Assembly: GCA_036785375.1 (NCBI GenBank) | Contig: JAWMAR010000159.1 | Coordinates: forward strand, 3,162,001-3,226,000 | DNA: 64,000 nucleotides | Direction of reading: 5' to 3' | From: Leucoraja ocellata | Lineage: Eukaryota | In this document: one piece after another, positions 3,550-55,649 of the stretch | Layout: each line of letters starts with the position of its first letter | How positions within the stretch are numbered: the first letter of the stretch is position 1 | Notes under the pieces: generated by a model | The model's database searches: none | The model's input: only the letters and a program-made list of their open reading frames with translations | What the model was told of the DNA's origin: nothing | Made by a program: the position numbers and the translations under genes

Positions 3550-3930
3550 ACAAACTTGGGTTGTTTTCTCTAGAATGCTATAGAAAATGATGAGTGGCGT
3601 CAACAGGGTCGACAGTCAGAACTAATTACCAAGGGTGGAAATGCCAAAGTCTAGAAGGCAGAGATTTAAGGTGAGAAGGGTAACATTTAAAATTTAGGGG
3701 GACAAGTTTTATTTACACAGGTGTTGAGTGGCTTGAACAAACTACCAGGGGTGGTGGTGGAGTCAAATACAAAGTTGCATTTGAGGATTTTAGATAGGCA
3801 CGTGGATATGCTGGGATTGGAGGAATGTGGATCTGTTGTAGGCAGATAAGATTAGTTTATCTTGGCATTATATTTGGCACAGATGTTCTAGGTTGAGCGC
3901 CTGTTCCTGTGCTCTACTGATCTATGGTCA
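3550..3930 (+). mobile_element. Old CR1-type 3' fragment
   Basis: Degenerate agatttaaggtgaga...tttagataggcacgtggatatg...cctgttcctgtgct. Confidence 0.65.
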
Positions 3931-6744: not shown

Positions 6745-7225
6745 TCAAGGTTTCAAGGTCAGTTTATTGTCACATGTATCAATTAACGTGCAGTGAAATT
6801 TGAGTTACCATACAGCCATGCTAAGTGATAGGCAACACTTGTCGGGATGGTTCAAACTCTCCATGGCTTGGAGTTCCCAAATCGGTCTCTAACCAGGGAC
6901 CGCGGGCTCCATGATGTTAAAGTCCACAGGCTCGTGGTTGGAGCTCTCCACAGTCGATCCTAGGCAATGAGAGCACAAGCTCAACGATGGTAAGTCCGTG
7001 CCGCGCCCACGGTTGAAGCAATGGGTCGGTCTCCAGGAAAGGCTGCGCCACTCCATGATGTTAGGCCGCAGTGGGGACGGAGATATACAATACAGAAATA
7101 AATCGCATCTCCGTCGAGGTAAGAGATTGAAAAACATTTCCCCCGCACCCCCCCCCCTCCCCCCCCCCTCCCCCCCACATCAAACAAACCAAGGAACTAA
7201 AACATACTCTTTAACACACACATAA
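6745..7225 (-). mobile_element. GC-rich non-coding retroposon, internally deleted
   Basis: G-run leader, hairpin 7076-7115, ggcctaacatc motif and tgacaataaa plus short-repeat tail, as in 19803-20434. Confidence 0.7.
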
Positions 7226-9379
7226 ACCAGGGAACACATACACATAAACTCATCATTTTTGCTACACTTAGCACTGGGCTTCACCCATAATCCTGGTTTT
7301 GTCAATTAATTTTAAGAGATTAGTGAGGAGATGTATAAAACAGTGTGGGTTTTACAAACAAAGTTCAAACTGTTGAAGTAATTGTGCTAATTACTTTTAA
7401 AATTACCAGCTTTTAAGCAAATTAAATTACTTTGAAGTGAGTTAACATTGTATGCTTGTGATAAAGCAGGCAGGCAAATTATTTCTGAGACTTATTAACC
7501 TCTATTAATTTTAGCTGAATGAACTGCTGCCTGTTCATGTAAAATCCATACTGCGAATAATAGAATGCTTTTGTTGTGCATGTGTGCAATGCAGTGTTAT
7601 CAATCTTTGACCCTTGTAATATTTATCTTTTGACTGACTGAAAGATATTGTCATTAGATAAAAAATACCTTTGGAAACCTTTGAGCTCCTGATAACTAAT
7701 GCTTGTGTTTTCTAATTTTGGAGTTTTTAATTGAATTAACTCCATGATTTATAAAAGACAAATAGTTGGTTTCCGTAGCAACAACTTTTAATTTGCATGT
7801 TATTGGCCCTACGGGAATATTTGTAAGTAGATTTGAAGAAAAAAAACAAGAGCATATGAATTATGTTAAGCACTAATTAAGCACTAACTTCAATGGAATT
7901 GAATTTAGTGGTGAAAGTATATGAATGATGCATACTCTTGTATGTAAACTAGTGCAAGTTTAACAGTGTACACAACTGGTCACATATAGATCTTCAGTGA
8001 ATTCCTGACAGTCTATTGAATTCAATATGAAATGGACTAGTGCACCAGGACATTTTATGTAAAAATGTTGGTGGCTCTGAATAAGTGGAAAATTTACTAA
8101 CTTGGTTACTAAGGTTCTTTAGTAACTTGTCAGTTTCTTTGTTGAACTAAATTAAGGCACATGTTGCAATCAAAAGCGCTTGAACAATTGGTTGGGAAGA
8201 AAGCCAAACTGTAAGAAAGATGACTGCGCCTCCTTTTCAAGAGCAGCCAGCTCTTGCACGGTCGGTGCCAAAGCATCAACATGACCCTTAAACGTGCTAC
8301 CTCCCGTTGCTACCTTTCTGTCCATAACCTACTTTATCATCAAACTCATCCACTGGAATTTTTAGGTCAGGTTGAATCTTAAACATTTTTAATATGATAT
8401 CAAGTGAAGGTACATGGTGTCATATTCAACAAATCATGCTGAAGGAACTATTTATGATTAGAAATTATCTAGTTTTGGCCATAAAGACTTTTGAGGAACT
8501 GTGATATTTAGAACTTTGAAACTTGAAGAACACCTTGCACAAATTATGTTGAAAATTGATTTTCAGAAAAGAATGTGCTAAATAATTAGACTTCCAAATA
8601 GAAACCATTCGAGCCCCTATTTCATGTGAATTGAAATGAGTCACATTGATCCTTATAGCTGTAATGTTTTTCAGTGATATTGTTGCTGACCTCTGGGCTA
8701 GCTCCATTGCCCCTTTCTCTTAATACATCTGGTTAACAAAACAACATAAATCTCAGATTTAAATTTAAAATGAATTATTGACATAATTCTACTTAAATGT
8801 GTGCATTTGTTCCAAGGCTCTACTCCTTGTACAGGAGTATTACCTAGCTCAAGAATTTCCAAATGTCAGCTGAAATTGTGAAAAGCTAGAAATAGTGAAG
8901 TTAAATGAATTGGAGATGGAGGTACATATATTGAGATGTTATCGGTGTTTTTATTAAAAATAATCAAGCAGGTAATAGAGTACTGGCCTTTTCACCCAGA
9001 TGAATGGAATACAAGGGTATGGTACAATTTACAAAGCAATGGTTAATTGACATCTCAAATATTGCAAGCTGTTCTGGGCACCACATTTCAGTACAAATAT
9101 GCAATAACCTGATAGGGATTAACTCAAATCATACTGACAGCAGAGTAATATTACGATGATCAGACTTAAATAAATTAGATTGCATTCCCCAATATATATA
9201 TTATTTGGCAATGATTTGATGTGATTTCTATATTCTCGCACTTGTGCTGTCCTGGCCAGCACAACGTTTTCTCCAAACTTATTCTGGTTCCCTTAATATT
9301 AATTAATTTAAAGTCATTTGATTGAAAATCCACAGGGTTATGATAGCAACTAAATTTAACTTCCCCAATATTCATAAAT

Positions 9380-13163: not shown

Positions 13164-13380
13164 CCAGTCAAAGACAAAGACAAAGAAGCCTTTATTGTCA
13201 TTTCGAAATGTTGTTGCCTTGCAGTCATACATATAATAAAAATGATAAAAACACACAATAAACAAAAAATTAACATCCACCACAGTGAGTTCACCAGGCA
13301 CCTCCTCACTGTGATGGAAGGCAAAAATCTTAAAATCCTTGTCTCTTCCCACCCTGTTCTCCCTCTGCTCTGAGGCGACC
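13164..13380 (-). mobile_element. GC-rich retroposon 3' fragment
   Basis: Near-identical to 28370-28570; hairpin 13276-13318. Confidence 0.85.
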
Positions 13381-13732: not shown

Positions 13733-15695
13733 GGAACATAGAATAGTACAGCACCAGAACAGGCCCTTCAGCCCACAATGTTTGTGCCAAACATGCCAAG
13801 TTAAACTGCCCTCATCTGCCTGTACATGATCCATATCCCTCTATTCCCTGCATTTCCATGTGCCTATCTAAAAGCCTTATAGACACCACTATCGTATCTG
13901 CCTCCACAACCACCCCTGGCAACATATTCCAGGACTCTACCACTCTATGTATAAAGAAAACTTGCCCTGCGCATTTCCCTTAAACTTTCTCCCTCTCATG
14001 TTATAGATATTATAGTTGGACATTTCCACCCTGGGGAAAAAGGTTCTGACTGTCAACGCTCTCTGTGCCTCTTATAATTTTACATCGTTCTACCAGGTCT
14101 CCCGTCAACCAGTGGCGTTCCAGAGAAAACAATCCAAGTTTCTACTCCTCCTGTTGGACTGAGTTATATCAAGAATCTGCAGGTGTATTGACTTTTCATT
14201 GGAAAATTCAAGACTACTTCGGATCTTAAATCAATTTTGTTAGTACTGTTTACTTCTTACAGCGTTGTTGCAGGCCCATGCTTGTTCTGAGAAGAGTAAT
14301 CCCATTGTTAAATTCCCCCTCCTTAAATCAGAGGGTGGTGAACCTGGGGAATTTATTGCCACAGACGGCTGTGGAGGCCAAGTCACTGGGTATTTTTAAA
14401 GCAAAGAGTGACAAGTTCTTGATTAGCAAGTGTGTCAAAGGTTATAGGGAGAAGGCAGGAGAATGGGGTTGAGAGGGAAAGATAGATCAGCCATGATTGA
14501 ATGGCAGAGCAGACTCATGGGCCGAATGGCCTAATTCTGCTCCAATGTCTTTTGAACTTATGAACGTATTTCTCAATATCCCTGCCACCTATTATTGTTA
14601 TTTTTACTAATAAGTGTACATATGTGTCAATGGTTGTCGTGTTTGTATTTTTTAACCGGAGGAGATGCAATGGAATTTCGTTGAACAGTATTGTGCAATG
14701 ACAATAAACGCATTCATTCACCTATTCTCTCGCATGCTTACCACTTCAGCTTTCAATCTTTCGCTGTTTATCAACATTAAATGGTAGGTTACAGCAGCCA
14801 ATTAACCTACTAGAACACCTCTGAGATATTAGAGGAAACCAGAGAACTCAGCAGAAACACATTTGGTCACAGGGAAAATGTGCCTCTCCACACAGCAACT
14901 GAAGTCACACCTCCAGAACCAGAAATGACAACTCAATTTGTCTGTTACATATGTGATGCAACATTCCATGCTGTTTTTCAGTTGTATCTCTTGGCCTGCA
15001 TGTTTTGATAAAAGTTTAATGTAGCCACTGATAAATAGTTTTTATAACCATGCAGATAAAATACAGAAGGAAAGTATATTTCTGTTAAGCTTGTACATTT
15101 AAACCATAAGACATTAGACATAGGAACAGATTTAAGCCATTCGGCCCATCGGGTCTACTCGCCATTCGATCATGGCTGATCTATCTTTCCCTCTCAAACA
15201 TATTCTCTTACCTTCTCCCCATAACCTTCGTAGCCGTTAATAATCAAGAACCTATCAAACTCTGCTTTAAAAACACTCAATGACTTCGCCTCCACCGCTG
15301 CCTATGGCAATGAATTCCACGGATTCAACAGTCTGGCTAATGAAATTCCTCTTAATTTCCATTCTAAAGGTGTGTCCTTTTATTCTGAGGCTATATCCTC
15401 TTGCCCTGCACTCTCTCACTACTGGATATATCCTTTTCACATACACTCTCTCCAGGTCTAACATTATTCGATAGGTTTCAATGAGATCCCCCCTCACCCA
15501 TCTGAATTCCAGGGTGTGCTGGCCAAGAGCATTCAAATGCTCATCGTACATTAACCCAATCAACCCTGGGATCATTCTTGTAATCCTTCTCTGGATCCTC
15601 TCCAATGTCAACACATCCTTCCTCAGATATGTGGCCCACAACTGCTCACAATATTCCAAATGTGGCCTCACCTGTGCCTTATAGAGCCTCAGCAT
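13733..15695. mobile_element. Cluster of CR1 3' fragments (minus 13733-14145, plus 14322-14565, minus 15105-15695), Rex1-type tail 14566-14720, old SINE 14740-14910
   Basis: VRPHLEYCEQLWATYLRKD in ORF 15267-15713; CR1 3' UTR motifs. Confidence 0.8.
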
Positions 15696-19802: not shown

Positions 19803-20434
19803 GGAGGGGGCGCTGCAATGACGGCAGCCCTGTCAGCAGCGCGTTAGTTTTTTCAACTTTTTTAATTTGTTTTAGTATGTTTTAAAGTATGTTTTTAATG
19901 TTTCTTTGTGTGTCTTGTGTGGGGGGTGGTGTGGGGGGGTAAGGGGGAAACCGTTTTGGCCGCCTCCTCCATGGAGAGGCGACTTTTTCCAGGTCGCCTC
20001 CGCCGTGGCCTAACATCAAGGATCGGCGCGGCCTTTCCCGGAGATGCGCCCGGGGCTTCAGCGGCGGGTGCAGCCTGGACTCTCGGCGTGGAGCGGGTGA
20101 GCCCTCGCTGGGGCTCGCTGGAGGGGAGTGCTCCGTTTCGCTGGTCCGGGGCAGCCGGCAGCCTGAAGCTGCGCGCGGTCTGCACAGCTCCTTTTACCAT
20201 CTGGACGCCCGCAGCAACGGCTACGGAGGGTTGAAGTCCCAACCACGGGGGAAAATGGAGGAGGACTGGCCAAATTGTGTGCCTTCCACCACAGTGATGA
20301 ATGCTGTGGTGGATGTTTATGTTAAATGTTTGTGTTTTTGTGTGTGTTCTTTATCATTGTACCGCTGCTGACATATTCATTTCACTTGCACTTTATGTGC
20401 AATGTGACAAATAAACCATATTGTATTGTATTGT
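19803..20434 (+). mobile_element. GC-rich non-coding retroposon, near full length
   Basis: T-rich then G-run leader, CpG-rich core, 3' hairpins, tgacaaataaa, (ATTGT)n tail. Confidence 0.8.
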
Positions 20435-21775
20435 AGGAAAAGAGAAACCTTGCTGTACTAGCAAGTGGAAATAAAGTGAAGATTTTAATATCGCTCATGG
20501 TGCAAAACAAATGAAGCGAGACAAATTTTTTGAACTGGTTTATTCATTCATCCGGATTGTTACCAACAGAACTCAGCAAAGAAACTCCATGCAATCTATG
20601 CAAGTATAAATGGACCAACTTTTTGTCTTATCTTCGGTTTTAACCAGCATCTGCAGTTCCTCACTACACTATAAATAGATCAAGTTGGATTTAATGATTG
20701 GTGGAAGTGCATCTGTGCAGCTTCCTTGACTTTTCCTTCTGACTGCTCCAACCAAGGTCTGTTTTTTGAAAAAGTCAAAATTCTACCATTCATTATAGAA
20801 CGTAGAACAATACAACACAGGAATAGGCCCTTTAGCCCCCAATGTCCATGCCAAACATGATGCCAATTTAAATTAATCTCTTCTGCTGCACATGATCCCC
20901 ATTCTGCCAATCCCTGGCTATCCACATGTCTATCCAAAAGTCTCTAAAATGCCATTTTGCACCTGCCTCCATCACCCCCAATGGCAGCGTGTTTCGGCAG
21001 ACACCCACTACTACTTCCTGTGTTAGAAAACATTTGACGCACATCTCCTTTAAACTTGAGATTAAAGCTATGCCTTTGAGCCTTTGACATTTCTACGCTT
21101 GTAAAATGATCTAATTTTAAGGTCAGTCTTAAACTTAAATGTTATACTTCTTGAAACTATGCCATGAAGTGCTGTCTATTTCTATCTATTTCTATTTAAT
21201 AATAGAACTTCCTACCACCTAATTATTTAAATTGACCCATGGCTGAATATGTAGTATCAGCAATTCCTCCTGCTCTTAGAACCTGATTTTTGCGAACGTC
21301 TTGATAATATCTAAACACACCCCTGCCAATTATCTTATACTATAATGGGCTCAAATTCATGACTGCTATTAATTCATTTCCATTTATTTTGTTTTAATGT
21401 ACCCTTTCTTCCATAATTGCTATGTTTGCAGGTGAAGAAACTCACATCTTATAGGTCTTCTGTCTCTAGTGAACAACAGAGCAGCTTCCTTCCTGGGGAT
21501 GAAATGTCATGTAAAGGTCTCTTGATTAAACAATGAAAAGCCTTCTGATTGTTGCTCAGCAATGTATCCGCATTTACATTGTATAAATGTGCTTCTGTCA
21601 AAAACAACACAGATCCCATGTTTAATCTTCTTCCTGAGAGCAAACTCTCTTAACATATTTTCTAACATATTCCCAATTGGTTTGTAATTATTGAGGGAGA
21701 TCCATTTTATACTAGCATTAAATGTAACAGTGCTTTAGTGCACAAGCCTAGTGTAAGGGCCAATTTCGATAATTT

Positions 21776-22660
21776 CATAGAAATAGAAAATAGGTGCAAG
21801 AGGAGGCCATTTGACCCTTCGAGCCAGCACCGACATTCATTGTGATCATGGCTGATCGTCCCCAATCAATAACCCGTGCCTGCCTTCTCCCCATATCTGT
21901 TGATTCCACTTGCCCCTTGAGCTCTATCTAACTCTCTCTTAAATCCATCCAGTGATTTGGCCTCCACTGCCCTGTGGCGGGGAATTCCACAAATTCACAA
22001 CTCTCTGGGTGAAAAAGTTTTTTCTCACATCAGTCCTAAATGGCCTCCCCTTTAATCTAAGACTGTAGCCCCTGGTTCTGGACTCGCCCAACATTCGGAA
22101 CATTCTTCCTGCATCTAGGCTTGTCCAGTCCTTTTATAATTTTATATGTTTCTGTAAGAGGACCCCTCATCCGTCTAAACTCCAGTGAATACAAACCTAG
22201 TCTTTTCAATCTTTCCTCATATGACAGTCCCGCCCTCCCAGGGATCAATCTCAGCTTTGTGTCATCTGCAAACTTGCTCGTGTTGCTCCTAATTCCCTCT
22301 TCCAAATCATTAATATACATGGTAAACAGTTGCAGCCCCAACACCGAGCCTTGCGACACTCCACTCGCAACTGCCTGCCATTCTGAAAAGGACCCGTTCA
22401 CTCCTACTCTTTGTTTCCTGTCTGCCAACCAATTTTCGTGGATTCATATACAATATTTTTAATTCCTTCTGCATCTCACCTTTCACATCGATCCCTATTA
22501 CACTTGGCCATACTCTCCTATCCCTTTGTGAGCTTCCTTTCCCGTTAATTCTGGGGTCATTAACTATCCCTTTACTCCCTTTCCCTTTAACTCCATCCTT
22601 GACTGTCCCATTTGACACCCCCCCCCCCCCCCCCTTATTTAGTTTAAAACCACCTGTGTG
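21776..22660 (-). mobile_element. Internally deleted CR1 (ORF1/ORF2 junction fused to RT and 3' end)
   Basis: [22 protein letters not shown] fused to RLIPG; 22500-22660 matches 42630-42700 in reverse. Confidence 0.85.
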
Positions 22661-23358
22661 GTTTTCTTCTTATCATTAGCCTTATCAGCATTTTTTTCTC
22701 TGTTCCTTATTGAGATTTCTGTCAAATGCATTCTTGTTATTTGTCACAACTATTCCTTGTGGCAAGTCTTTCCAAAGTCCCCGGCACACAATTATTGGAT
22801 GTGTCACAATTATTGGATGTGTCACATGGATTATTCTCATTTGTGAACTTGTTTGAACCCTTTTTTAAACTTAAAGACCCTTGTTAGGCTGCCCTTCACC
22901 CAACTTTTTAAAGATAAAATGGCCTGATTTGCTACACTTATTGAGAAATCACGAAGACAAACTGTAAAGCCTACAATCGTCCTCCAGCTCCCCCTCCTTC
23001 CGCCATCTACGATCCCCTCATTCTAGGTCTGCAAAATAATCTTGCATTCCAAATTGTAAAGATGGGTTTGCTCTTCTAGGGGCTGGTGTGATCCTGCTGG
23101 GCCAAATGTCGTCCTCTTGGAGAACAGCACAGTGGCACAGCAGTAGAGTTGTTGCCTTACAGCGCCAGAGACCCACATTCAATCTGACTATGGGTGCTGT
23201 CTGTACGGAGTTTGTCCGTTCTACTTGCGACCATATGGGTATTCTCCAAGTCCTCCTATTTCCTCCCACACTCCAAAGATATACAGGCTTGAGGTTAAGT
23301 AGCTTCGGTAAGTAGTTAAATTGTCGTCAGTATGTTGGTGTACGGCAGGGTGATCACT

Positions 23359-23497
23359 TCTTCTTCTTGCGTATGGCGTGCACAGCCTAAAGTTGTAGGA
23401 CAACTTGTTCTTTTTGTTCTTATTTGATTGTGCACGCCAGGTTGGTTGCATTCGTCGAAACAGGGCAGACCACGTAAAGGTTGCAACCTCCCAACCC
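23359..23497 (-). mobile_element. 139-bp ribozyme-headed SINE-like retroposon with (AAG)n tail
   Basis: 9-bp TSD gtgatcact at 23350-23358 and 23500-23508; minus-strand tail gcaagaagaaga; 11-bp hairpin 23374-23384/23429-23439. Confidence 0.85.
23444..23497 (-). ncRNA. Minimal HDV/CPEB3-like self-cleaving ribozyme fold (predicted)
   Basis: GGGUUGG(P1) GA GGUUGCA(P2) ACC(P3) UUUACGU(L3) GGU(P3') CUGCCCU(P1') G UUUCGA CGAA(J4/2) UGCAACC(P2'); G1-U wobble, catalytic-C position 23454. Confidence 0.75.
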
Positions 23498-24309
23498 TAG
23501 TGATCACTAGCCAGTGCGGACTTGGTGGGCAAAAGGGCCTGTTTCTGCACTGTATCTCTGAAGTCTTAAGTATAGTGAGTTGCGATGCCTCTAAATCATT
23601 TTAATGATGGAGCCAAGACATGTTCACAATATAGCCTGATCAATACATGTTGAACATCACCAATATAGTTTAAATTGATTTAATTTGTATTTGTCAAAAA
23701 ATTAATTATCACATTCTTCAGAAATTCTTTAGAAAAACTGCGAAAAGAAAATTTGTCATTCCCATTAGCTCGCTGAAGAAAAAATACAAAAATACAAAAT
23801 TCAAAAGGGACATGGGGCTGCAGTCTATTTTTCTACATTAATAATAGAGCACAGTTGGCAGCCAAGATATGGAACAGAAAATTCCATTTGTACATTGACT
23901 AATATTTATATTAAAACTGACAGAAGGAATTTTCTTCCAATACTACAAGGCTCATCAAAAACAATAAGAATCAAGGGTGAACAATGTTTCATTACAAAGC
24001 AAGAAAACACTGTTTAGCTCCCCGGGCTTATTCCAGGTCTACCTAAATAATCCAGCATCCCAAACAGTCACTGAGGGACCAGAGATTACAGATGCTGAAA
24101 AAGCAATCTGTTGGAGGAACTCAGAGGGTCAAACATCATCTGTGGAAGGGAATGGACAAATTATGTCTTGGATGTAGAGCCTTCTTCAGACTCTAAATGA
24201 TCTGTTAACTCCAACATGGCCTTCCTCCTAATGGATAAATCAGACCAATTCATAACGAGTTGGTCTCCATTTGCCATCTTTGTGGAATCATATGGTGCAA
24301 CACAATTGT

Positions 24310-24660
24310 AAAAGCTAACTGTTTCAGGACTGGACGAGGGATGGTCAAGATTATAAACACTGATCTCCTTACCTTTTTTTAATTAAATTTTTTTTTTTTT
24401 TTAATGTCATATTCTCTTTTTTCTATTTTCTTTTCCTCAACTTTCTTCACTCATTTGTCTTTTTTTTTTTCTTCACACACTATATCTCACGCCTTTCTAT
24501 CCTTTACTATCTAATTGATTTTTCTTATTCTCATCTTTCTTTATAATAACAAAAAAAATAAGAAGCTGTACATAAAATGTATTATGAAAATATATATTAG
24601 GCACTTTGGTGCCATATGATTGTACTTCTAATAAAGTAAAATATAAAAAATTAAAAAAAA
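24310..24660 (+). mobile_element. L1-type 3' UTR with AATAAA and A-rich tail
   Basis: Pyrimidine-rich tract then gaagctgta motif (as 38970) and ctaataaagtaaaatataaaaaattaaaaaaaa. Confidence 0.6.
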
Positions 24661-25362
24661 CTCCAACATGGCCAGAAAATCACCACATTTAATAAAGACC
24701 TTGATTGTAATAGATGGCACTAGTAGATCAAGACCATTGCAATTATTGATTTGTTGTTTGACCCTTGCGAGGGAAGATATAGGGACTGATGAGGTAGATT
24801 CACTGTGGATTGAGTTGAGGAATTGCAAAGGGCAGAAATTTCTACCCTATATTGTAGGATAAAAAATTCCCACCTCTGGAACCATTAATCCACAGCTTTG
24901 GATAGAACATGAAAAAGACAAAGCTTGTTTTTTTGTGACAAATTTAAGCACCAGCCCATCTATTTTTCTCATCTGCAAGATTACCATCTCATTTTATTCT
25001 TATAGCCGTGCTGAAGGAAGTACTACTGACGATCAGGATAGCGAATGTCCCTTAAACTGATGAAATATCTCATTTTCAGGCATTTGTATTGGCTACAGGT
25101 CAATTTCCACCAACCCTGATATAAATTTAAAAAGCTGTGCACGCTCTCACAAAGAGTTGCCTAATCTTGCAACTCCCGTTTAAAATTTGTGAGCTAAACA
25201 CAAAGTGCTGGAGGAACTCAGCAGAATTCAGTATGGAAAAGAGTCGAGAAAGTCACAGCATGCTTTAATGGAAGTTCTTGCTGCATTTATGTCCAAGTCT
25301 AATTGCCTTTCTCGGACTTGCCGCCTGCAACCACTGCTGTGGCTCCAATTGAACTAAAGCAA

Positions 25363-25525
25363 TAAATAAAGTGCTAGAGGAACTCAGCAGGTCAGCCTGA
25401 AGAAGGGTCCTGACCCAAAACATCATCTATCCATTCCCTTCTCAGATGCTCCTAGACCCACTGATTTCCCCCAGCACTTTGTGTTTTGTTGATGATTCCA
25501 GGTATCTGCAGTCTCTTGTGTCTCA
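25363..25525. mobile_element. Penelope-like pLTR fold-back relic with hammerhead-like motif
   Basis: aaagtgctagaggaactcagcaggtc / gacccactgatttcccccagcacttt; ctgaagaagggtcctgacccaaaac. Confidence 0.75.
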
Positions 25526-26143
25526 AGGTTAGAGAGCTGCTGTGAACAGTGAGCATAGTTCTGTCTCACCTGGAGGATGGTGCAGTTAATGAATAGGAAG
25601 CGGTGCAAGACTCCTGACCAACATGGCAAGAATACATGTTTGTCCACTTACCTGCAACAGTATATAAAAGCTCATGAAACTATCATTCTGAAGAATAGTG
25701 CAGTGAGGTAAAATAATTTTCCAGTGAGGTTTGGCAAGAAATTCAATAATGCATTGTCCAAATTGCAAAAGGGAAGGTGCTGGAAGGCTTAAAGAATATT
25801 GAGGTAGATAAATTGCTGGGGCATCACCAAATGCAACCTTGGACATTGTAGGCAGCTAGGGAAGAAATTACTGAGGCCTGGCAGAAATATTTGCATCATC
25901 TGTAGCTGTGGAGGAAGTAGCAGAATACCCAGTATAAATAATATACCAATGCCAGGAGCTGGGGTGTGCCACAGGAATCTTTGCTGGGTCCACTGTTGTT
26001 TGTCATCTGGTGTGCATTTAGATGCCAATATAGTTAACATGGTAAGTAAATTTGCAGATGACACTAAAATTAATGTTATAGTTCACAGTGAGAAAGACTG
26101 TCAAAGTTTACAAATAGATATGAATAAAATAGGTCATCGTAAT

Positions 26144-27370
26144 TAATTTATTAGCCAAGTATGCAAAAACATACAAGGAATCTAATTTGCCATAGTCATA
26201 CCAAAAAAGCAATGACAAACAACTACATTAACACCAATTACATTAACAAAGATTAACATAAACATCCACCACAGTGCACTGCGATGGAAGGCAATAGTTG
26301 GCGGCGCGACTCACCCGTTGCAGCGGCCCCTACAGCCTGTCTGTCTTTTTTTTATTTTTTGTCTAGTTAAATGTAGTGTTTGGTGTTTTTTAATAGTGTT
26401 TTTAAATGTGTATATGTGGGGGGCGGGGGGGGAGGGGGAAACTGTTTAAATCTCTTCCCTGTCCGGGAGACCCGACCTTTTCCCTGTCGGGTCTCGGTTG
26501 TCGTTGGGGCCTAGCACCGTGGAGCGGCCTCCAACCTGAATGACCCGGGGGCTCAGGAGACTGCGGAGCTGCGGACTACTCACCATCGTGGGGCTGGCCG
26601 GCCTCGGAGCGTGGGGAGCGGTGGTAACTCGCTGCTGCAACGCGACTCCTGGGGCTCGGAGGCTCCAGCAACGCAGCCGCAGGTCCGGTGAACTGGGACA
26701 TCGGGAGCTCGCGGGTCCGGGGGAGAGACCGCTTCCCGGAGCTCCCGCAACGCCACTTCTCCAGCCCGTATCGCGGGGTTGGAACAACCCGGACCGGGAC
26801 CGTACATCACCTGGCGCGGCTTCATGGCCGTGGGACTCACCATCGCCCGTGGGGGTTCCAACCTTGTACTTTCAGACCGGGAGCGGGGCCATAAATCGCC
26901 CCGCGCGGCCTAAAATGGCCCAATGACTTATCATCACCCGCCTGGGGCTTGGACATCGGGAGAGAAATTGAGAACAGGGGAGAGAAAAGACTTTGCCTTC
27001 CATCACAGTGGCTTCACTGTGATGGATGTTTGTGTGAATTTAATTGTGTGTATGTCTGTAGGACATTGTCTTTGTTTGTATGGCTGTGGAAACAACATTT
27101 CGGTTGAGTCTCACTGGGGCTCAAATGACAATAAATTTGTATTGTATAACATATTGACTACTTCCCTCCTTTCCCCCCACGATCGGGGCAGTCGAACCAT
27201 CCGCAGTCGGGTGATCGGGGCGATTGAAGCTCCTGCATTGGGGCGATCGAAGCTCCTGCGATCGGGACGGTCAAAGCTCCCGAAGTCGGTCCCCAACCAA
27301 GGGAACGCAAGCTCCACAATGTTAAGTCTACAGGATCTCGCGGTGTTGAAGCTTCCGAAGTCGATCCCTG
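26144..27370 (-). mobile_element. GC-rich retroposon (minus) split by an opposite-strand relative
   Basis: catccaccacagtgcactgcgatggaaggcaa at 26263-26294 continues as cttccctcc after 27150; degenerate about 24-bp repeats gatcggggcgatcgaagctcctgc. Confidence 0.65.
26298..27150 (+). mobile_element. GC-rich non-coding retroposon, full length
   Basis: Same leader and 3' modules as 19803; hairpins 26467-26495 and 26999-27026; tgacaataaa plus (TTGTA)n. Confidence 0.8.
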
Positions 27371-27373
27371 ACA

Positions 27374-27470
27374 AAGAAGGGTCTCGATCCGAAACGTCAC
27401 CCATAGGTATCTGAAGAAGGGTCTAGACTCAAAATGTCACCCATTCCTTCTCTCCAGAGATGCTGCCCAT
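27374..27470 (+). mobile_element. Penelope pLTR fragment with tandemly duplicated hammerhead-like core
   Basis: aagaagggtctcgatccgaaacgtcaccc followed by ctgaagaagggtctagactcaaaatgtcaccc. Confidence 0.7.
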
Positions 27471-28330
27471 CCCGTAGACTGTCTACCTTATCTATGCCTC
27501 TCATAATTGTATACAATTCTATCAGGTCCCCTCTTACCCTCTGACGTTCCAGAGAAACCAATCCAAGTCTGGGCAACTTTTCCCCAAAACTAGTACTTTC
27601 TCATCTAGGCAGCATTCTGGTAAACTTCATCTGCACTCTCCTCCAAAGCCTTCACATCCTTCCTGTAATGGGGCAACAGAACTACACACAATACTCAAAA
27701 TCTGCCCCAAATTATACACCAGTTAGCCTGACATGGTGGGGAAAATATTGCAGTCAATAATAAAATATGAAACAGCGGAACATTTGGATAGCAGTAGCAG
27801 GATCGGTCCGAGTCAGCATGGATTTACGAAGGGGAAATCATGCTTGACTAATCTTCTGGAATTTTTTGAGGATGCAACCAGGATAATGGGCAAGGGAGAG
27901 CCAGTGGATGTAGTGTACATGGACTTTCAGGAAGCATTTGATAAGGTTCCACATCGGAGATTAGTGGGCACAATTAAAGCACATGGTATTGGGGGTAGGG
28001 TGCGGACATGGATACAAAATTGGTTGGCAGTCAGAAAATAAAGGGCAGGATTTAATGGGTACCTTACAGAATGGCAGGCAGTGACTAGTGGGGTATGGTA
28101 AGGCTCGGTGCTGGGACCGCAGCTATTTACAATATAAATGAATGATTTAGATGAAGGGATTAAAAATAACATTAGAAAATTTGCAGATGACACAAAGCAG
28201 GGTGGCAGTGTGAACTGTTAGGAGGATGCTATGAGAATGCAGGGTGAGTTAGACAGGTTGGGTGAGTGGGCAGATGCATTTTATTGTGGATAAATGTGAG
28301 GTTATCCACTTTGGTGGCAAAACAGGAAGA

Positions 28331-29113
28331 TTTTGATTTTGATTTTGATTTTGATTTGATTTGATTCCTTTATTGTCATCCAGACCTTTCGGTCTGAACA
28401 AAATGTCGTTGCCTGCAGTAATACACAATAATAATAAATAACAAAACATACAATAAACACAAATTAACATCCACCGTAGTGAGTTCACCAAGCACCTCCT
28501 CACTGTGATGGAGGCAAAAGTCTTAGTCTCTGTCTCTTCCCTCCTTGTTCTCCCTCTGCGCTGAAGCGACCCAGGCTGAAGATGCCGCCCTCCAGTCCAG
28601 CGGACCTCCGTGGTGATGTCGCCGCTGCCTCAGCTCCGAGTCCCGCTGCCTCAGCGAGTCGGGCCACTGCTGCATCAGCTCCGAGTCCCGCTGCCTCAGC
28701 TCCGAGTCCCACTGCCTCAGCTCCGAGTCCCGCAGCCTCAGCATCGGGCCGCTGCCGAAAGCTGGAACGCCGCTTCAGCGAGTCGGGCCACCGCTTCTTC
28801 GGCCCCGAAGATGGCCAGCCTCACGTTGGTGAGTCCTGGCTGGCTCTGCCTCCAGAGCCTCGAGGTCGGTCACAGGTTGGAGACCGCCAGCTCTGCCATT
28901 AGGCCTCAGCGCAGACGGAGGCAGAGAAGGGGGATACGACAAGAAAGTCGAATTCCCCTGAAGGAAGAGACAAAAAAACATTTCACCGCCCCCCCCCCCC
29001 CCTATAACACAACCTAATAAACTAAAATTTAGCTAAAACAAGACAAAAAAAACACAAAAAAAACAGACAGACTGCAGGCGAGCCAGAGCTGTTTAACAGC
29101 ACTGCCACTTCCG
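28331..29113 (-). mobile_element. GC-rich non-coding retroposon, full length
   Basis: Minus start ccggaagtggcagtgc; tail of aatca/aaatca repeats; GNRA hairpin cagaccGAAAggtctg 28381-28396. Confidence 0.85.
28622..28742. repeat. 21-bp GC-rich minisatellite (gctgcctcagctccgagtccc)n
   Basis: About 5 imperfect units seen directly. Confidence 0.9.
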
Positions 29114-30521
29114 GAGTTTTACCTAAATGGTGTGAAGTTGTGAAAATTTTATCTAAAAGGCAGATTATTATCTAAGTGGTGTGAAGTTGTGAAAAGGGGA
29201 AGTACAATGGGATCTGGAGGGGTCCTTGTTCATCAGCCACTGAAAGTAAGCATGCAGATACAGCAGGCAGTGAAGAAAGCTGCCGAAAGCTGGAACCTGG
29301 AAGGCGTGTTGGCCTTCGTAACAAGAGGAGTTGGGTATAGAAGCAAAGAGGTCCTTGTGCAGTTGTACAGGGCCCTAGTGAGACCACACCTGGAGTATTG
29401 TGTGCAGTTTTGGTCTTCAAACTTGAGGAAGGACATTCTTGCAAATTGAGGGAGTGCAGTGTAGGTTCAAAAGGTTAATTCCCAGGATGGTGGGACACCT
29501 ATGTTGATAGATTGGAGCGGCTGGGCTTGTATACACTCTAGAATTTAGAAGGATGGGAGGGGATCTTATTGAAACATATAAGATTAATACGGTTTGGATA
29601 CGCTAGAGGCAGGAAACATGTTCCCAATGTTGGGGGAGTCCAGAACCAGGGGCCATAGTTTAAGAATAAGTGGTAAGCCATTTAGAACGGAGATGAGGAA
29701 AAACTTTTTCACACAGAGAGATGTGAGTCTGTGGAATTCTCTGCCTCAGAGGGCAGTGGAGGCTGGTTCTCTGGATGCTTTCAAGAGAGAGTTAGATAGA
29801 GCTCTTAGAGATAGCGGAGTTAAGGGATATGGAGAGAAGGCAGGAACGGGGTAATGATTGTGGACGATCAGACATTACCACATTGAATGGTGGTGCTGAC
29901 TCAAAGGGCCAAATGGCGTACTCCTGCACCTATTGTCTATTGTTCATTGTCTAAAGCTACAACATGACGACTTTTATACTAAATTTAAAATTTGAGTTTT
30001 TCGAAGTGGAAGTCAATGTAGGTTGTTTTGCAAGAAAAGCCATTGTAATCCTGGATGATCATCAATAAAGCAGCATTTGGCACACCAGGATTTTACTTTT
30101 GAGGCACAGTATCTTTGAATCATTGGAATCATCAGAAAATAGTGATAAGAGAGGGGCAATGCAGATTTTCTTGGAATAAAGAAGATTAAATTTAGTATAA
30201 TCCATCCGTTTTAAAAATAATTTAAATTATGAAAAGTATCTGGAAACTATAGATTTCAGGGAGAGGACAATTACAGATTTAATCAGCCTGAGGCAAAATT
30301 GATGACCAGAGTTCCCACATATTTCATGCTCCATGTATTTTAGGTAGCCAAACAAACGACACAAAAACAGGTACGTTTGTATTCACAGGAACTATTTAGC
30401 CACAGTTTAGACTATAATTTCTTAGCATGCACACAGTATACTTTGCTTCTTGTGCTGCTGGGACTAAAGACATTTCAATCACAGAAGTTGTGTTTAAAAT
30501 AATCGACCTTAATACCTTGAT

Positions 30522-34416: not shown

Positions 34417-36148
34417 CTCTGTGGATAAATGTGAGGTTATCCATTTTGGTGGGATGAACAGGATGGCATATTATTATCTGAATGATAGACATAAAATCCT
34501 GGAGTACCTCAGCAGGTGAGGCAGTATCTCTGGAGAGAAGGAATGGGCGATGTTCGGGTCGAGACCCTTCTTCTGACTGATGTCAGGGGAGGAGGCGGGA
34601 CAAAGATAGAATGTAGTCGGAGACAGTAAGACTAGTGTGGGAACTGGGAAGGGGAAGAGGATGGAGAGAGAAAGCAAGGGCTATCTGAAGTTAGGGAAGT
34701 CAATGTTCATACTGCTAGGGTGTAAACTACCCAAGCGAAATATGAGGTGCTGTCTCCAATTTGTGTTGGGCCTCACTCTGACAATGGAGGAGGCCCAGGA
34801 CAGAAAGGTCAAATTGGGAATGGGAGGGGGAGTTGAAGTGCTGAGCCACCGGCAGATCAGGTAGGTTAAGACGGACTGAGCGGAGATGTTCAGTGAAACG
34901 ATCACCGAGCCTGCACTTGGTCTCGCCGATGTAGAGAAGTTGACACCTGGAACAGCGGATACAGTAGATGAGGTTGAAGGAGGCGTAAGTGAACCTCTGC
35001 CTCACCTGGAAAGATTGTTTGGGTCCTTGGATGGAGTTGAGGGGGGAGTTAAAAGCCTGCAGTTGCAGGGAAAAGTACCTGGGGAGAGGGTGGTTTGGGT
35101 GGGAAGGGACGAGTTGACCAGGCAGTTTCAGAGGGAACAGTCTCTGCGGAAAGCAGAAATGGGTGGAGGTGGGAAGATGTGGCCAGTAATGGGATCCTGT
35201 TGGAGGTGGCGAAAATGTATGGGGATTATATGCTGTATGTGGCGGCTGATGGGATGGAAGGTGAGGAAAAGGGGAACCCCGTTTCCGAAAGAATGAAGGC
35301 ATCTCCGATGCTCTGGTATGGAATACATCATCCTGGGCGCAGATGCGGCGTAGTTGGAGGAATTGGGAGTAGGGGACAGAACCATTATCTGAATGGTGTC
35401 AGATTAGGAAAGGGAGCAGTGCAATGAGACCTGGGTGTGCTTGTACATCAGTCACTGAAAGTCTGCATGCATGTGCAGCAGGCAATGATGAAACCTCTTG
35501 GCATGTTGGCCTTCATTGCGAGAGGATTTGAGTTTAGGAGCAAGGAGGACCTACTGCAGTTGTTTTGGGCCCTGGTGAAACCGCACCTGGAGTATTGTGT
35601 GTAATTTCGGTCTCCTAATTTGAGGAAGGACATTATTACTATTGAAGGAGTGCAGCGTAGGTTCACCAGGTTAATTCCCGGTCTGGTGGGACTGACGCAT
35701 GATGATGGAATAGATCGACTGGGCTTGTATTCACTGGAATTTAGGATGAGAGGGATTTTTACAGAAACATAAAATTCTTAAAGGATTGGACAGGCGAGAT
35801 GCAGGAAAAATGTTCCTGATGATGGGGGAAGTCCAGAACCAGGGGCCACAGTTTAAGAATAAGGGGTAGGCCATTTAGAACTTGGTGAGGAAAAAGTTCT
35901 TCACCCAGAGAGTTGTGATTCTGTGGAATTCTCTTCCACAGAAGGCTGTGGAGTCCAATTCACTGCATGTTTTCAAGAGAGCGTTAGATTTAGCTCTCAG
36001 GGCTAAAGGGATCAAGGGATATGGAGAAAAAGCAGGAACCTGGCACTGATTCTAGATGATCAGCCATGATCATATTGAATAGTGGTGCTGGCTCGAAGGG
36101 CCAAATGGCCTACTCCTGCACTTATTTTTCTATGTTTCTTTGTTTCTA
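34417..36148 (+). mobile_element. CR1 3' portion split by Penelope insertion
   Basis: gtggataaatgtgaggttatcc... resumes at 35384 and ends ttttctatgtttct. Confidence 0.88.
34485..35383 (-). mobile_element. Penelope-like element 3' part with GIY-YIG endonuclease remnant and pLTR
   Basis: NLIYCIRCSRCQLLYIGETKCRLGDRFTEHLRSV in ORF 34727-35302; 12-bp TSD attatctgaatg 34473-34484/35384-35395. Confidence 0.92.
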
Positions 36149-37344: not shown

Positions 37345-39050
37345 ACCATTAATTACTAAATTAAATGCCCTTATTCAATTTTGGAAAACACTTCCTTATA
37401 GGTAGAGCAAATGCTATAAAGATGATGTTCCTTCCACACCTCCTGTACCTATTTCAATCAATACCGATTTATCTCCCTAAAAGCTTTTTAAAAAGACTTG
37501 ACTGTGATTACAAACTTTATCTGGGATTATAAAACCCATAGAATTAATAAATGACATTTATGTAAACCTAAAGAAATTGGTGGACTGGTTCCCCCCAATT
37601 TTCTTATCTATTACTGGGCAACTAATATTAAAAAATTAATCTACTGGATGGATGATACATGTCAACAAGTAAACTGGTTAAAAATGTTCACCTTTCAATA
37701 TAGGCGCGATTCTTCTTTCTCCAATACATCTGAATAAATCAATGAGAAAAATCGAAAATTCATAGCACCCTGCGCATTTGGAAACAGTTGAAATCAACTC
37801 TCAATTTGAGAAATTCCTCTCTTTTACCAATCGCCAACAATCCCTCGTTTAAACCATCTACTTTAGACAAGGCATTTGTACAATGGGAAAATCTAGGAAT
37901 TAAAACGCTGGGAAATCTTTGCGAGAAGGGGATCTTCTCGTTTCAAGAATTACAGGAGAAATATCATTTGAAAGCTAGTAATTTTTTCAGATATCTTCAA
38001 ATCCGAGACTATGTGAAAACACACACGCAAGACTGTCATTCTATGTGCCCAGATATATTAGACGAATGCATGAATAGAAAGGCGGATACAAGTAAGTTAA
38101 TAACCTATATTTATAATACTCTTTTAACTGCACATATCCCACCTTCCGAAATGATTAGGCGAGCATGGGAAGATGAATTGGGCTTATCAATCTCAAAGGA
38201 GTGTTGGGAGGAAAGCCTTTTATACACACATTACTGCTGTCTTAATGTTAGGCACAGCCTGATACGATTTAAAATACTGCACAGACTTTATTACTCAAAG
38301 TCTAAATTGAACAAGATCTTCCCAAATTTGTGATAAATGTCTCCTCCAAGAAGCGACTACAACTCATTCTTTTGCTTCCTGCACAAAGTTACAAAACTTC
38401 TGGAGGAGAATATTTGATACGTTTTCCAAAATACTTAAAACTAAATTGGACCCAGATAAAAAACTGATCATATTAGGTTTGTCAGAGGCCTGTTCTAAGC
38501 TAACAATATTTCAAAGACGTTTCCTCAACTACGGCCTAATAATGGCGAAAAAAGTAATACTTAAATTTTGGAAACAGATAACATTCCCACAGTGAAGATG
38601 TGGATTACAGATATGTCCGAGACACTACACTTGGAAAACATTAGGCTTATCTTGGCGGAAAAACCAGATCAATTTCTTGAGACATGGATAACCTTTACGG
38701 AATTTTTACAACAATAGTATGGTGAAACACAAATTTAAATTTAAATCCGATGCTACGACGATGGGTGAGGGGGGGGGGGGGGGGTGGGGGGCAAAGTATA
38801 TCTCCATCGTTTCTTATTCCTCTTTCTCTCTGCTGCACTGCTTTGGTAGCTTAGGGGTATTTTTCTCGTTCTTTTCTATTTTATCTCTTCATTTTTTCCT
38901 TTCTTCTTTTCTTGCTTTCCCTTTGTTTCCTTTTTTCTAATTTAAGTTATAAGGTTAAAAATAAAAATGAAGCTGTATAACAATTGTATAATTGTAGATG
39001 CCGAATGTTTTATCCTTGTACAAAAAAAACCCAGAACAAAAAAAAAAAGT
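37345..39050 (+). mobile_element. 5'-truncated L1-clade LINE (ORF2 C-terminal half, 3' UTR, A tail), frameshifted
   Basis: GRANAIKMMFLPHLLYLFQSIP, FQELQEKY..FFRYLQIR, FKILHRLYY, CDKC..THSF zinc-knuckle-like motif. Confidence 0.85.
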
Positions 39051-42140: not shown

Positions 42141-42309
42141 AAGTCTAAGGATGTAATGAGAGGGCATTTAAATAATAATGGAATTGGCAGAGACAACATG
42201 GATTTATGAAAGTGAAGTTCTATTTGGAAGGTTTTTGACAAGCGGAATGGTTGAGAACAAACCAGGTGACTTTCAGGTCCTAACATATGATGTCAGCACT
42301 GGGCCTGTA

Positions 42310-51940: not shown

Positions 51941-52478
51941 GAGGCAATGGCTGTGTCGGCGATCTGGAGGCGGCCTGACTTCGGGGCTGTGGCGGCGTTC
52001 CGGTGGTGGCAACCCGACTTCGGAGGCTCGGCTGCGGGCCCAGTGGATGACATCATCGGGAGCTCGCAGGTCACAGGTTGGTGACCTGTTTTTTCGGAGC
52101 TCCCGCGACAACGGCTTCGTCTGCTGGACAGGAGGGCGGCAGCTTTGGCAGCTTCGACCACCCTGGGCCGCAGAGTTTGAACCAGCCTGTTCGCGGAGCT
52201 CGGATTCAGCTGCGGGACTGACTTACTTACCATCACCCGGCAGGGTCACAACATCGGAAACCTGGATCGCCTCAGCGCACAGGGAGAACAAGGAGGGAAG
52301 AGACAAGAACTTTAAGACTTTTGCCTTCCATCACAGTGAGGTGGACTCACTGTGGTGGATGTTAAATCTGTGTTTATTGTGTGTTTTTTGTTATTTTATT
52401 CTATGTTATGACTGCAAAGCACGAAATTTCGTTCAGACTGAAAGGACTGAATGACAATAACAGATACTTACTTTTACT
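51941..52478 (+). mobile_element. GC-rich retroposon, 5'-truncated
   Basis: 3' module near-identical to reverse complement of 28370-28570; hairpin 52327-52359. Confidence 0.85.
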
Positions 52479-53256
52479 TAGGAGACTTTACAAATTAATA
52501 TTATAAAATAAGAATAAAGTGCGTAATTCCTGGCTAGTTCTCCTCACCTAACTAAAGGAAACTGAGACCATTTGCAGTCCCTACACCTCTGCTCTCTTAA
52601 TTATTTTTAAAAAACTGCTACAGTGAGTGAGCCACATCATCACATGTTAGGAATAGACCTGAGCATTCCTGGTCTGTGCCTTGTGGGGAAACTGTTCTGC
52701 ACAAGACTACATCACACAAAACTCCATCTATATTTCACATTGCTTCAGGAAAGCAGCCAATATAATAAGGAACCATACATGATTCATGCCTCAGTCACCC
52801 TGTCTTCTCCCAGCTCCTGTCGGGAAGAAGATACAAAAACTTGAAATCACACGCCACCAGATTCAAAAAAGCTTCCTCCACGCAGTTATTCTTGAACGTA
52901 TCTCTCATATGCTCGGGATGAATACCTAATCTTCCAATATACCTCGAGGCAGCCTTTGCATCTTTTTCCCTGTCCTTTCTCTGTAGCTATAACGATGTAT
53001 TCTGCACTCGCTGTATTTTCTTTGTTGCACTACCTTGATGTATTCATGCATGATGTACAACACGAACAGTACAGCACAGCACAAGAACCATGTCTGTGCC
53101 GAACATGATTCACAAACCATCTCTTATCTATCTGCACATAACTATTCCCTGCATATCCCTGCATATCCATATGCCCTTTCCAAAAGTCTCTTCAATGTCA
53201 CAATCACATCAATGTCACTATCACAACCACCATCCCTGGTATCTCGTTCCAGGCAC

Positions 53257-54082
53257 TCAAGAGTCAAGTCAAGAGTGTTTTATTGTCATATGTCCCGGGC
53301 GGGACAATGAAATTCTTACTTGCTGCAATGTAAACATTGTATATAACGGGAAAAAAAGAAATAGTTCAATAAATAACAAACATAGTGCAAATAACAAATA
53401 ATAATATAGTCTTTTGCAGTTCAGAGCTCATAGCTTATTTGTTGTGTTTAATAGCCTGATGGCTGTGGGGAAGAAGCTGTTCCTGAACATGGACGTTACA
53501 GTCTTCAGGCTCCTGTACCTTCTTCCTGATGGCAGTGGTGAGATGAATGTGTGGCCAGGATGGTGTGGGTCTTTGATGATTTTGGCTGCCTTTTTGAGGC
53601 AGTGACTACGATAGACCCCTTCGACGGTGGGGAGGTCAAAGCCGGTGATGGACTGGGCAGTGGTCACAACTTTTTGTAGTCTTTTTCGCTCCTGGACGTT
53701 CAAGTTGCCAAACCAGACCATGATGCAACCAGTCAGAATGCTCTCTACTGTGCACCTATAGAAATTATGGAGAATCCTCTTCGATATTCCGAATCTCCGT
53801 AATCTTCTCAGGAAGTAGAGTCGCTGATGTGCCTTCGTTACAATTGCATCGGTGTGCTGGGTCCAGGAAAGATATTCTGATATATGCACGCCCAGGAATT
53901 TGAAGTTATTGACCCTTTCCACCATCATCCCGTTGATATAAACAGGATTGTGGGTCCTCATCCTTCCCCTACTAAGGTCCACAATCAGTGCTTTGGTCTT
54001 ACTGATGTTGAGAGCCAGGTTGTTGTGCTGGCACCATTTGGTCAGTCGGTCCATCTCACTTCTATACTCTGACTCGCCCCCA
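53257..54082 (-). mobile_element. Rex1/Babar-type LINE 3' fragment with open RT C-terminal ORF, nested in a CR1 tail
   Basis: ORF 53428-54129: WCQHNNLALNISKTK..FKFLGVHI..KAHQRLYFLRRLRRF..FYRCTVESILT..HPGH..LPSGRRYRS..SFFPTAIRLLN; hairpin + tgacaataaa + repeat tail. Confidence 0.92.
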
Positions 54083-55649
54083 ACTGTATTCGTCCAACCA
54101 CCCTCTGTGTAAAAAAAATGTTGCCCCATACAACTTCACCCTTCTCATCTTACAGTTATGCCCTCGTATTTAATTTTTTTCCATCCTGAAAACTATGATT
54201 TGCCTGGATGGCACATAAAACAATATTTGTCATTTTATCTTGGTACCAGTGACAATAATAAACAGTTCAGAGGTTGCATTAAATACACTAAAGTTTCTTT
54301 CCTAATCCAGTATTTTTCTTGTGGTCTGTTTTCAGATGATAAATATGGTGATTTTATCTGATGTTTGGGACAGATTGGATTGATGGCAATGTTGTGAATG
54401 TTGGCAAAGCTCCTAACATTTTGCACATTGTGTACCTGTTAAAATTCATAACCATCTGACTCATGAAAAGACTGTGCATTTCGATACTTTTAATTTTCCT
54501 CTTTTCCTTTCACTTTCTCCTCCTTAGTCCCATTATTTATTTTCTACCTCCACATCTAAACATTTTAATGGAGTAATAAACTGTCAAGACAAGTTTTGTT
54601 GCAGACAGCAGTAATTTCTGCCCTGCTTGAGTACAATGGGTTTAGCCTGAAAAAGCAATTACCACCGGAGTGTGAATTCCATTAGGTGTACATTGTGGCT
54701 CAATAGTGATTTACAGATTTAACCCTTTGTATTCAATGATAAGCAAAATAAATTTAACAAACTCCTATTTCTAAGTAAAAGTACCAGACTAAATTCTATG
54801 TTTCAAGAGTAAAATGGATTCCATCAGTCTTGGATATAATAGAAAACTTCCAACAGTATAATGATATCAAATGGCTAATAACATGAACAAACTGATGCAG
54901 CCCAAGAGCATTCCTAAAATTGTGACCTTCAAGTGTGTAATGGGTTTTGGTGAGACGTTGGTACTTTTGTATAAGAAATGATGTGGCTGCAAGATGAGTA
55001 TTGCCATGAATTCTATTTTGGATTATTTAAATCCAGATTTAGCTATGTGATATTTTGTACAATGCACTTTACTTTAGAAATCTATTATAATGCTATAGTA
55101 TATTTCTCTAAAATTACAGTGCCACTTATGTTTTCATTAGTACCTGCAGAAAGAACATTGTTTCACAGCACTCTGATTGTCAGCAAAGAGCTTTGTGTTG
55201 TTCATTTGTTTTCCAATTTGAGGCATTGTTAACAGGGTTGGCATTTATTGTTTCTCTCTTGTTTCTCATGAGTGCCTGACTAAGCTGCTCTGAATGACAA
55301 TTAGAAGTCACATAGTGTGGTTAAGGACAGAAGGTTTTCCTTTCTAATGAACATGTCTGTTTTCTAGCAATGTGAGAGTTTCCTGGTCACCATTAGTAAG
55401 CCCAGATTGCTTTATTTCCAGACATTGGAAGTTGAATTTAAATACTTAATCCATCATTTTGTTTCCTGGATTACTCAACCATGTCACAGACCTCCAAAGC
55501 TGATAATATAACCACAGGAAACCATGCCTTGAACCTTGTTTCAACACATTAACGTGCATCCACTTAACACGTATAGCATACAGATAACATTGTGAGGCGT
55601 TTCTTAGAAGCCTTATCAAATAAAATGTAATCAAACAAAATGTTCAAAA

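Follow-up and report, generated by a model that had tools for sequence, protein, structure and literature searches.

A probable superfamily of structured, non-tRNA retroposons with LINE-type ends in the genome of the skate Leucoraja ocellata

Bipartite non-autonomous long interspersed nuclear elements (LINEs), such as RIME, NARTc, Bov-A, RTE-N and the Vingi derivatives, combine a LINE-like 5' start with a LINE 3' end, contain no coding frame and are thought to be transcribed by polymerase II (PMC5786205). In this 2018 Repbase survey, RTE, Ingi and R2 are the only makers of bipartite elements, and LINE 5' parts within short interspersed nuclear elements (SINEs) come only from RTE and Vingi. The conserved-domain SINE superfamilies (CORE, V, Deu and Meta) share a central module and take their tails from several LINE partners (PMC5786205, PMC11481361). 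Two families of bird SINEs with GC-rich, non-tRNA heads on bipartite RTE (cited in PMC5786205 and PMC7245038) are uniform and have no demonstrated transcription; the transcription of SINEs with GC-rich, non-tRNA parts is a question that the 2018 survey leaves open (PMC5786205). Sadhu retroposons of Arabidopsis are non-coding, about 900 bp long and without a small-RNA head, with a 5' motif, a pyrimidine tract, diverged subfamilies, a poly(A) tail, target-site duplications of 7-16 bp and about 20 full copies (PMC2848041). Finally, SINE2-5_NV, with its tail from Rex1-24_NV, uses a Rex1 3' end for mobilization behind a small-RNA (tRNA or 5S) head (PMC3747384). Here we compare with these systems a GC-rich, non-coding retroposon family found in a stretch of 64,000 nucleotides (nt) of the Leucoraja ocellata genome (assembly GCA_036785375.1, contig JAWMAR010000159.1, positions 3,162,001 to 3,226,000, forward strand), hereafter the window.

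The elements are non-coding and uniform, with a LINE-derived tail, and they share a common layout: hairpin H0 at the very 5' end, a T-tract, a G-run, a CCT motif, hairpin H1, GNGGCCTA, a GC-rich core, hairpin H2, a T-rich spacer and the tail, which often carries a terminal hairpin, H3. The family sits between the bipartite non-autonomous LINEs and the conserved-domain SINE superfamilies and fits neither definition. Unlike the former, its ends resemble those of Rex1- and L2-type LINEs, with two LINE types of tail, and most of its length is a structured middle. Unlike the latter, its elements are longer, lack a tRNA, 5S or 7SL head and polymerase III boxes, and share modules (H2, also H1) that are covarying hairpins. 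Where the bird SINEs comprise two families, there are dozens of subfamilies here, with Rex1- or L2-type tails and an internal GC-rich part; where Sadhu has poly(A) and target-site duplications, the tails here are microsatellites and none of the 72 loci with a scorable tail shows flanking direct repeats of at least 8 bases; a sequence link with Sadhu is not expected. The literature searched gave no account of a family of this kind in cartilaginous fish, although skate and ray repeat libraries may hold unnamed models and Repbase, Dfam and SINEBase were not compared. As a whole, the data are probably best explained by a structured non-tRNA retroposon superfamily with LINE-type ends, a presumably added middle and a fold kept by its source copies.

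An earlier note on the window, made from its letters, had described an ordered architecture in seven copies. The observation is real and larger than first described. All seven stems that it named lie where it placed them and fold, and the architecture holds in the three full-length copies, at 19803(+), 26297(+) and 28331(-), the first of them internally deleted; the others are truncated, decayed or, at 26144(-), provided with a different tail (Table 1). Hairpin H0, the L2-type tails and the LINE-like 5' start were absent from that account. In the 3.44-Gb genome, the head pattern GGGGGAAA-N50-80-GNGGCCTA has 16,513 exact matches (control 58), with unrelated sequence in 3 of the first 30, and a 17-base arm of H2 has 40,282 (control 2). 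Candidate matches to families A, B and C, represented by the three full-length copies, number 4,983, 6,575 and 5,732 (40 scored per family). The 30, 25 and 25 loci examined, respectively, are dispersed, mostly with a fixed 5' end and with a 3' end of TGACAA(A)TAAA followed by a microsatellite. Among all examined loci, 136 heads fall into 32 clusters and 144 H2 copies into 41. An H2-like match lies at most 900 nt downstream of 49 out of 60 pattern-sampled heads (3 of these proved spurious on reading), and in the remaining 11 H2 is deleted, interrupted or gapped.

One line of evidence for this reading is the covariation in the hairpins. The modules were aligned by sequence only and the pairs were named after reading the sequences. 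Compensatory changes between clusters are seen in H0, H1 and H2 alike. For H1 (31 rows: the copy at 6745 and all but two of the 32 clusters, those two being dropped for their large indels), 84% of the cells are paired and 10 of 13 pairs have changed on both sides; the covariation score exceeds that of all 500 shuffles, and slid registers leave 29-54% paired. For H2 (31 of 41 clusters, after removal of truncated sequences and near-duplicates), 98% are paired and no shuffle out of 500 is as good; 5 of 12 pairs have changed on both sides, where a single covarying pair had been noticed before. For H0 (each cluster giving one row, and 17 of 22 rows being used), 93% are paired and 4 of 8 pairs have changed on both sides, a result reached by 3 of 500 shuffles on score and by 55 of 500 on pair count. 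In the three full copies, the segments holding H1, H2 and H3 have folding z-scores of -1.2 to -5.1, and the terminal segment of the decayed copy at 6745(-) folds no better than shuffles (z +0.28). G-U pairs outnumber A-C pairs 40:22 in H1, 52:2 in H2 and 15:1 in H0 (107:25 in total), an excess that favours sense RNA over DNA or the antisense strand. The idea of one non-coding structured superfamily is supported, with stems that show compensatory change on the sense strand. Conservation in fold rather than in sequence, as first proposed, finds no support in that form, since the H0, H1 and H2 modules also align at 57-66% mean column identity.

The stems could also be by-products of template switching or repair, one arm being copied onto the other without any selection on the RNA. 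This would suit the H3 stems, often perfect and wholly different between subfamilies, as well as the 30 family A copies chosen by closeness to the query, in which non-CpG differences per base are 0.0113 in stems and 0.0103 elsewhere. However, arm copying predicts perfect Watson-Crick stems and not an excess of G-U over A-C, and the position of the stem, its bulge and its flanks are constant across 17-31 clusters; we regard it as very unlikely. Under the preferred reading of a fold kept by selection, the equality of stems and rest among the A copies means that selection is not visible after insertion, and selection likely acts on source copies and not on inserted ones. The earlier claim of selection for fold is not supported for inserted copies, whose stems are not additionally conserved. 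Several points weigh against a conserved fold: the covariation shuffles and pair counts ignore kinship, and the structures were read from the same sequences; RNAalifold recovered only the 5 inner pairs of H1, with two other small helices; mutual information did not rank the H1 pairs first; and z falls below -2 in only 11 of 20 clusters on the wider segment from the G-run to GGCCTA.

H3 with TGACAATAAA is the ordinary 3' end of the Rex1-type LINEs of this genome and is not special to the family. The window itself contains, at 53260-54084(-), a LINE fragment of the kind of partner whose 3' end the family copies. Full-length relatives of this LINE have a single frame with RVT_1 and PF09004. The provisional Rex1-type label is based on this architecture, on the tails, on the published lack of ORF1 in Rex1 LINEs (PMC13343379) and on their conserved 3' untranslated region (UTR) with an oligonucleotide tail (PMC6274825). 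Rays are among the vertebrates richest in Rex1 in a 2026 survey (PMC13343379), and the closest named relatives of the genome's Rex1-type protein include shark and ray proteins (53-60% identity). The arrangement TTTCR-stem-TGACA(A)TAAA forms the 3' end of at least five Rex1-type families, which vary the stem and keep the flanks exactly as the element subfamilies do, so that H3 is a borrowed signal. The earlier note had taken H3 and the tail as a family feature; for this module, the alternative that it named, a fragment of a LINE UTR, is what was found.

Rarer tail types also resemble Rex1-type ends (L389, L402). Among the 49 sampled heads with H2, 27 tails are of the TTTCR-stem Rex1 type, 8 are CATACTTGG (for which no partner LINE was seen), 1 is GGGATTAATAAAG, 6 are L2-type and 7 are other. 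The L2-type tail TGTAAAGCACTTTG sits in loci L067 and L129 after coding ends that we take to be L2-like from their C-terminal motif. In a tree of 39 out of 43 heads, with tails excluded and B absent, the L2 tail label needs two changes, forced by starred branches: one leads to a set of 7 rows and the other to a lone copy within the C lineage. Two rows carried the wrong Rex subtype label, an error that leaves the L2 count unaffected. Tails have been exchanged between Rex1- and L2-type LINEs. One Rex1-type family is young, with copies 97-98% identical and open frames of up to 1,345 codons, and could supply the enzyme. The single frame of a young Rex1-type LINE in L167 and L168 (G000:C2743, C41) starts inside the 5' motif; upstream of the endonuclease lies a long, variable stretch coded by repeats.

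At the 5' end, the likeness to LINEs is short. The two commonest Rex1-type families open with AAGATGGCG or AAAATGGCGG, both presumably YY1 sites; their 5' regions have no BLAST match to A, B or C. Accurate L1 initiation is reported to need YY1 (PMC8535693). A pattern of YY1 site plus H0 has 241 matches in the genome (control 0), and the first 30 comprise the openings of 5 Rex1-type and 10 L2-type LINEs, 10 of the present elements and 5 others, although the pattern itself forces likeness over the first 25 bases. In 7 of the 10 L2-type openings, an endonuclease match follows within 1.5 kb. An L2-type LINE found by protein search alone, through its endonuclease (L334), has a YY1-like start and a hairpin that shares 19 of 20 bases with H0 of an L2-tailed head (one of 24 queries, E 0.006; the best shuffle gave 0.077, which tempers the match). 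The T-rich stretch after the start contains 40-46% T in those LINEs, where it often encodes a hydrophobic N-terminus, and 42-66% in the elements. Subfamilies that begin with the YY1-like motif belong to A-like, B-like and other lineages, and this start is therefore likely ancestral.

Against a LINE ancestry of both ends, a YY1-like start is found in only 6 of 60 sampled heads and is absent from A and C, and 15 of 25 B copies have a start that we take to be ETS-like. Head profiles score only 4-5 bits on LINE 5' ends (2.8-3.8 on shuffles). The abundant Rex1 family whose TTTCACT tail is closest could not be traced to its 5' end, and no LINE with a tail identical to that of A, B or C was found. 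H1, the core and H2 have no match above shuffles in 12 LINE 5' regions, so that the middle is left with no LINE source.

This last result also bears on the possibility that a LINE outside the sample already had the G-run, H1, the core and H2 in a long 5' or 3' UTR and gave rise to the elements by plain internal deletion, without any added sequence. Both element ends are indeed LINE-like, the 5' ends covered are those of some LINE families (20 loci did not lead to that of a fourth Rex1-type family), and a simple deletion copy exists: a single copy at L398:212-360 consists solely of the first 70 bases and the tail of the L389 Rex1-type family and is a plain bipartite Rex1 derivative. Nevertheless, none of the 60 sampled heads is followed by a LINE frame belonging to it, no Rex1 coding end directly joins H2 in 30 H2 loci, and one parent cannot account for both Rex1- and L2-type tails. 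Such a deletion origin is thus unlikely.

The starts of the elements in L003 (about 900), L184, L239 and L267 resemble what we take to be the CTCF core motif, one of them closely. A SINE with a tRNA-like head (by eye) has, at L075:2011-2280, the first ~45 bases together with the 3' end of the young Rex1-type family and, at L124:3393-3600, an L2-type tail (one copy of each).

The GC-rich cores had been called unalignable. This is true of the three full window copies, which give no mutual alignment, but across 24 subfamilies (B left out) alignments at E 0.001 were obtained for 216 of 552 ordered pairs. The cores carry several related words of the form CT(T)A(A/C)CATC (18, against a shuffle mean of 0.7), the first of which is GGCCTA. 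The cores hold 14-56 CpG in 220-760 nt and likely act as CpG-rich promoter bodies. Two other readings of the cores were rejected: decayed N-terminal LINE coding sequence (no profile match above shuffles) and antisense splice-donor enrichment (20, against a shuffle mean of 14.0 and maximum of 20; sense, 14 against 16.0).

The SINE-like size, the fixed 5' ends, the shared central domain and the LINE tails would all be expected of an ordinary polymerase III SINE with a head from an unrecognized small RNA. This origin is highly improbable. No tRNA- or Rfam-derived head was matched and the window contains neither tRNA genes nor Rfam families reaching the gathering score, in agreement with the non-tRNA nature first proposed. 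B boxes were rejected as well, B-box-like words not being enriched in the 24 cores (5, against a shuffle mean of 2.9 and maximum of 5; A boxes were not scanned). Moreover, TTTTT occurs within the first 130 nt of 79 of 80 A, B and C loci and 57 of 60 sampled heads, and such early T-runs, which would terminate polymerase III, argue against it, as does the resemblance of the start to LINE starts.

RNA reads from related organisms (three raw runs and one contig set) cover every module and peak over H1. This peak is sense in X21, assuming that its first mate runs opposite to the RNA; in X22 it is antisense, which oligo-dT priming within the A-rich antisense tract could explain, and X24 lacks it. 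Weighing against transcription from an own promoter, the reads give no transcription start and the two stranded libraries disagree on the strand of H1. The elements might lack a promoter and be copied from read-through host transcripts, with the 5' end set by the 5' hairpins as signals for processing or priming. The variation of 5' motifs among subfamilies and the antisense single-cell reads over H1 go in this direction, and the SINE in L075, which keeps 45 Rex1-type 5' bases although a promoter should be provided by its own head, suggests a role of the hairpin at the RNA level. On the other hand, the cores are CpG-rich, the varied starts are mostly motifs that we take to be of promoter type, and a ribozyme in the head was rejected, with no Rfam match on the elements (8 loci, to E 5, Rfam folds only). 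Read-through copying is therefore improbable. HDV-like (hepatitis delta virus) and twister-like readings of the head, made by eye, did not hold from one subfamily to the next and were also rejected.

The family is likely a polymerase II, LINE-borrowing retroposon superfamily. Its ancestor would have kept the first few dozen bases of a LINE (YY1-like motif, H0 and T-rich stretch) and its last ~70 bases, as bipartite non-autonomous LINEs do, with the G-run, H1, the GC-rich core and H2 as a middle presumably inserted between them. Transcription by polymerase II would start from the 5' motif and the CpG-rich core, and the protein of the partner LINE would recognize H3, as is known for the 3' ends of stringent LINEs (PMC3747384). 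H1 and H2 likely serve RNA survival or loading onto the LINE protein, whichever tail follows. Multiplication would be limited to source copies that keep the fold; compensatory changes would then build up between subfamilies, and inserted copies would decay evenly. A broader proposal remains rather doubtful: that these elements are a vertebrate polymerase II 'SINE' class, in which the H1/H2 scaffold is a general loading or stability signal for the proteins of CR1-group LINEs, a single non-coding lineage moves between Rex1 and L2 partners by exchanging both ends, and tens of thousands of CpG-rich promoter-like sites have been seeded across the genome of a cartilaginous fish.

The family is abundant, partly young and bipartite-like, has partners of Rex1 and L2 type and shares its genome with a young Rex1-type LINE whose frames are open. 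Its natural compensatory variants offer a test of recognition by the Rex1 protein at both RNA ends, and of the role of a conserved retroposon 'body', a long-standing gap. The family may account for part of the unclassified repeats in ray and skate genomes.

Table 1. Family copies, their modules and the Rex1-type LINE fragment in the window (positions from its first letter)
Feature	Position	Strand	Remarks
Family A full copy	26297..27147	+	~853 nt; youngest; best 30 copies 97-98% identical
A copy, H0	26300-26328	+	
A copy, T-tract	to ~26415	+	
A copy, G-run	to 26441	+	ends in GGGGGAAA
A copy, H1	26467-26495	+	
A copy, GGGGCCTA	26506-26513	+	GC-rich core next
A copy, H2	26999-27026	+	
A copy, Rex1-type H3 and TGACAATAAA	27098-27135	+	then (TTGTA)n tail
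Family C copy	19803..20436	+	~290 nt internal deletion; family length ~930
C copy, H0	19807-19831	+	
C copy, G-run	to 19950	+	
C copy, H1	19976-20000	+	
C copy, GTGGCCTA	20005-20012	+	
C copy, H2	20285-20313	+	
C copy, H3 and TGACAAATAAA	20380-20415	+	then (TTGTA)n tail
Family B full copy	28331..29115	-	~790 nt; 82-89% to relatives
B copy, start CCGGAAGTG		-	presumably ETS-like
B copy, H0	about 29077-29105	-	
B copy, H1	28927-28959	-	
B copy, GAGGCCTA	28900-28907	-	core with 21-nt tandem units next
B copy, H2	about 28469-28512	-	
B copy, H3 and TGACAATAAA	28369-28403	-	then (AAATC)n tail
Decayed copy	6745..7250	-	partial T-tract, short core, without H0 or H2
Decayed copy, G-run	7137-7176	-	
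Decayed copy, H1	7076-7115	-	
Decayed copy, GCGGCCTA	7062-7069	-	
Decayed copy, Rex1-type tail	6763-6798	-	
5'-truncated B-type copy	13164..13380	-	H2 13274-13322; H3 stem deleted; TGACAATAAA 13191-13200
5'-truncated B-type copy	51941..52480	+	core; H2 52327-52359; H3 52427-52461
3' piece of another subfamily	26144..26295	-	H2 26263-26292; CATACTTGGCTAATAAA tail 26147-26163
Candidate upstream core of the 26144 copy	27148..27375	-	by eye, no alignment
Rex1-type LINE 3' fragment	53260..54084	-	frame end with PF09004, 3' UTR, (CTTGA)n tail
LINE fragment, TTTCA-stem-TGACAATAAA	53279-53310	-	
TGACAATAAA in the window	6763, 13191, 27126, 28369		variants at 20405 and 52452

The copy at 26144(-) was probably split by the insertion of the family A copy at 26297(+), as read by eye. 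A lone Rex1-type tail with no head upstream lies at 14670-14720(+). Other retroelement remains in the window, at 42172-44650(+), 34727-35398(-) and 37746-38333(+), comprise frames for a CR1-like esterase and endonuclease, a GIY-YIG fragment and a frame without Pfam match. Outside the window, in flanking DNA unrelated to the elements, a CPEB3/HDV-like ribozyme core was observed at L032:359-416(+) (RF00622, 26 bits, E 0.0057; gathering score 35), with P1, P2, P3 and the loop present by eye and P4 nearly absent. A second, similar copy lies on the minus strand of L285, near oriented position 3652 (1.59 Mb examined), and this ribozyme-like core is thus likely part of a repeat.

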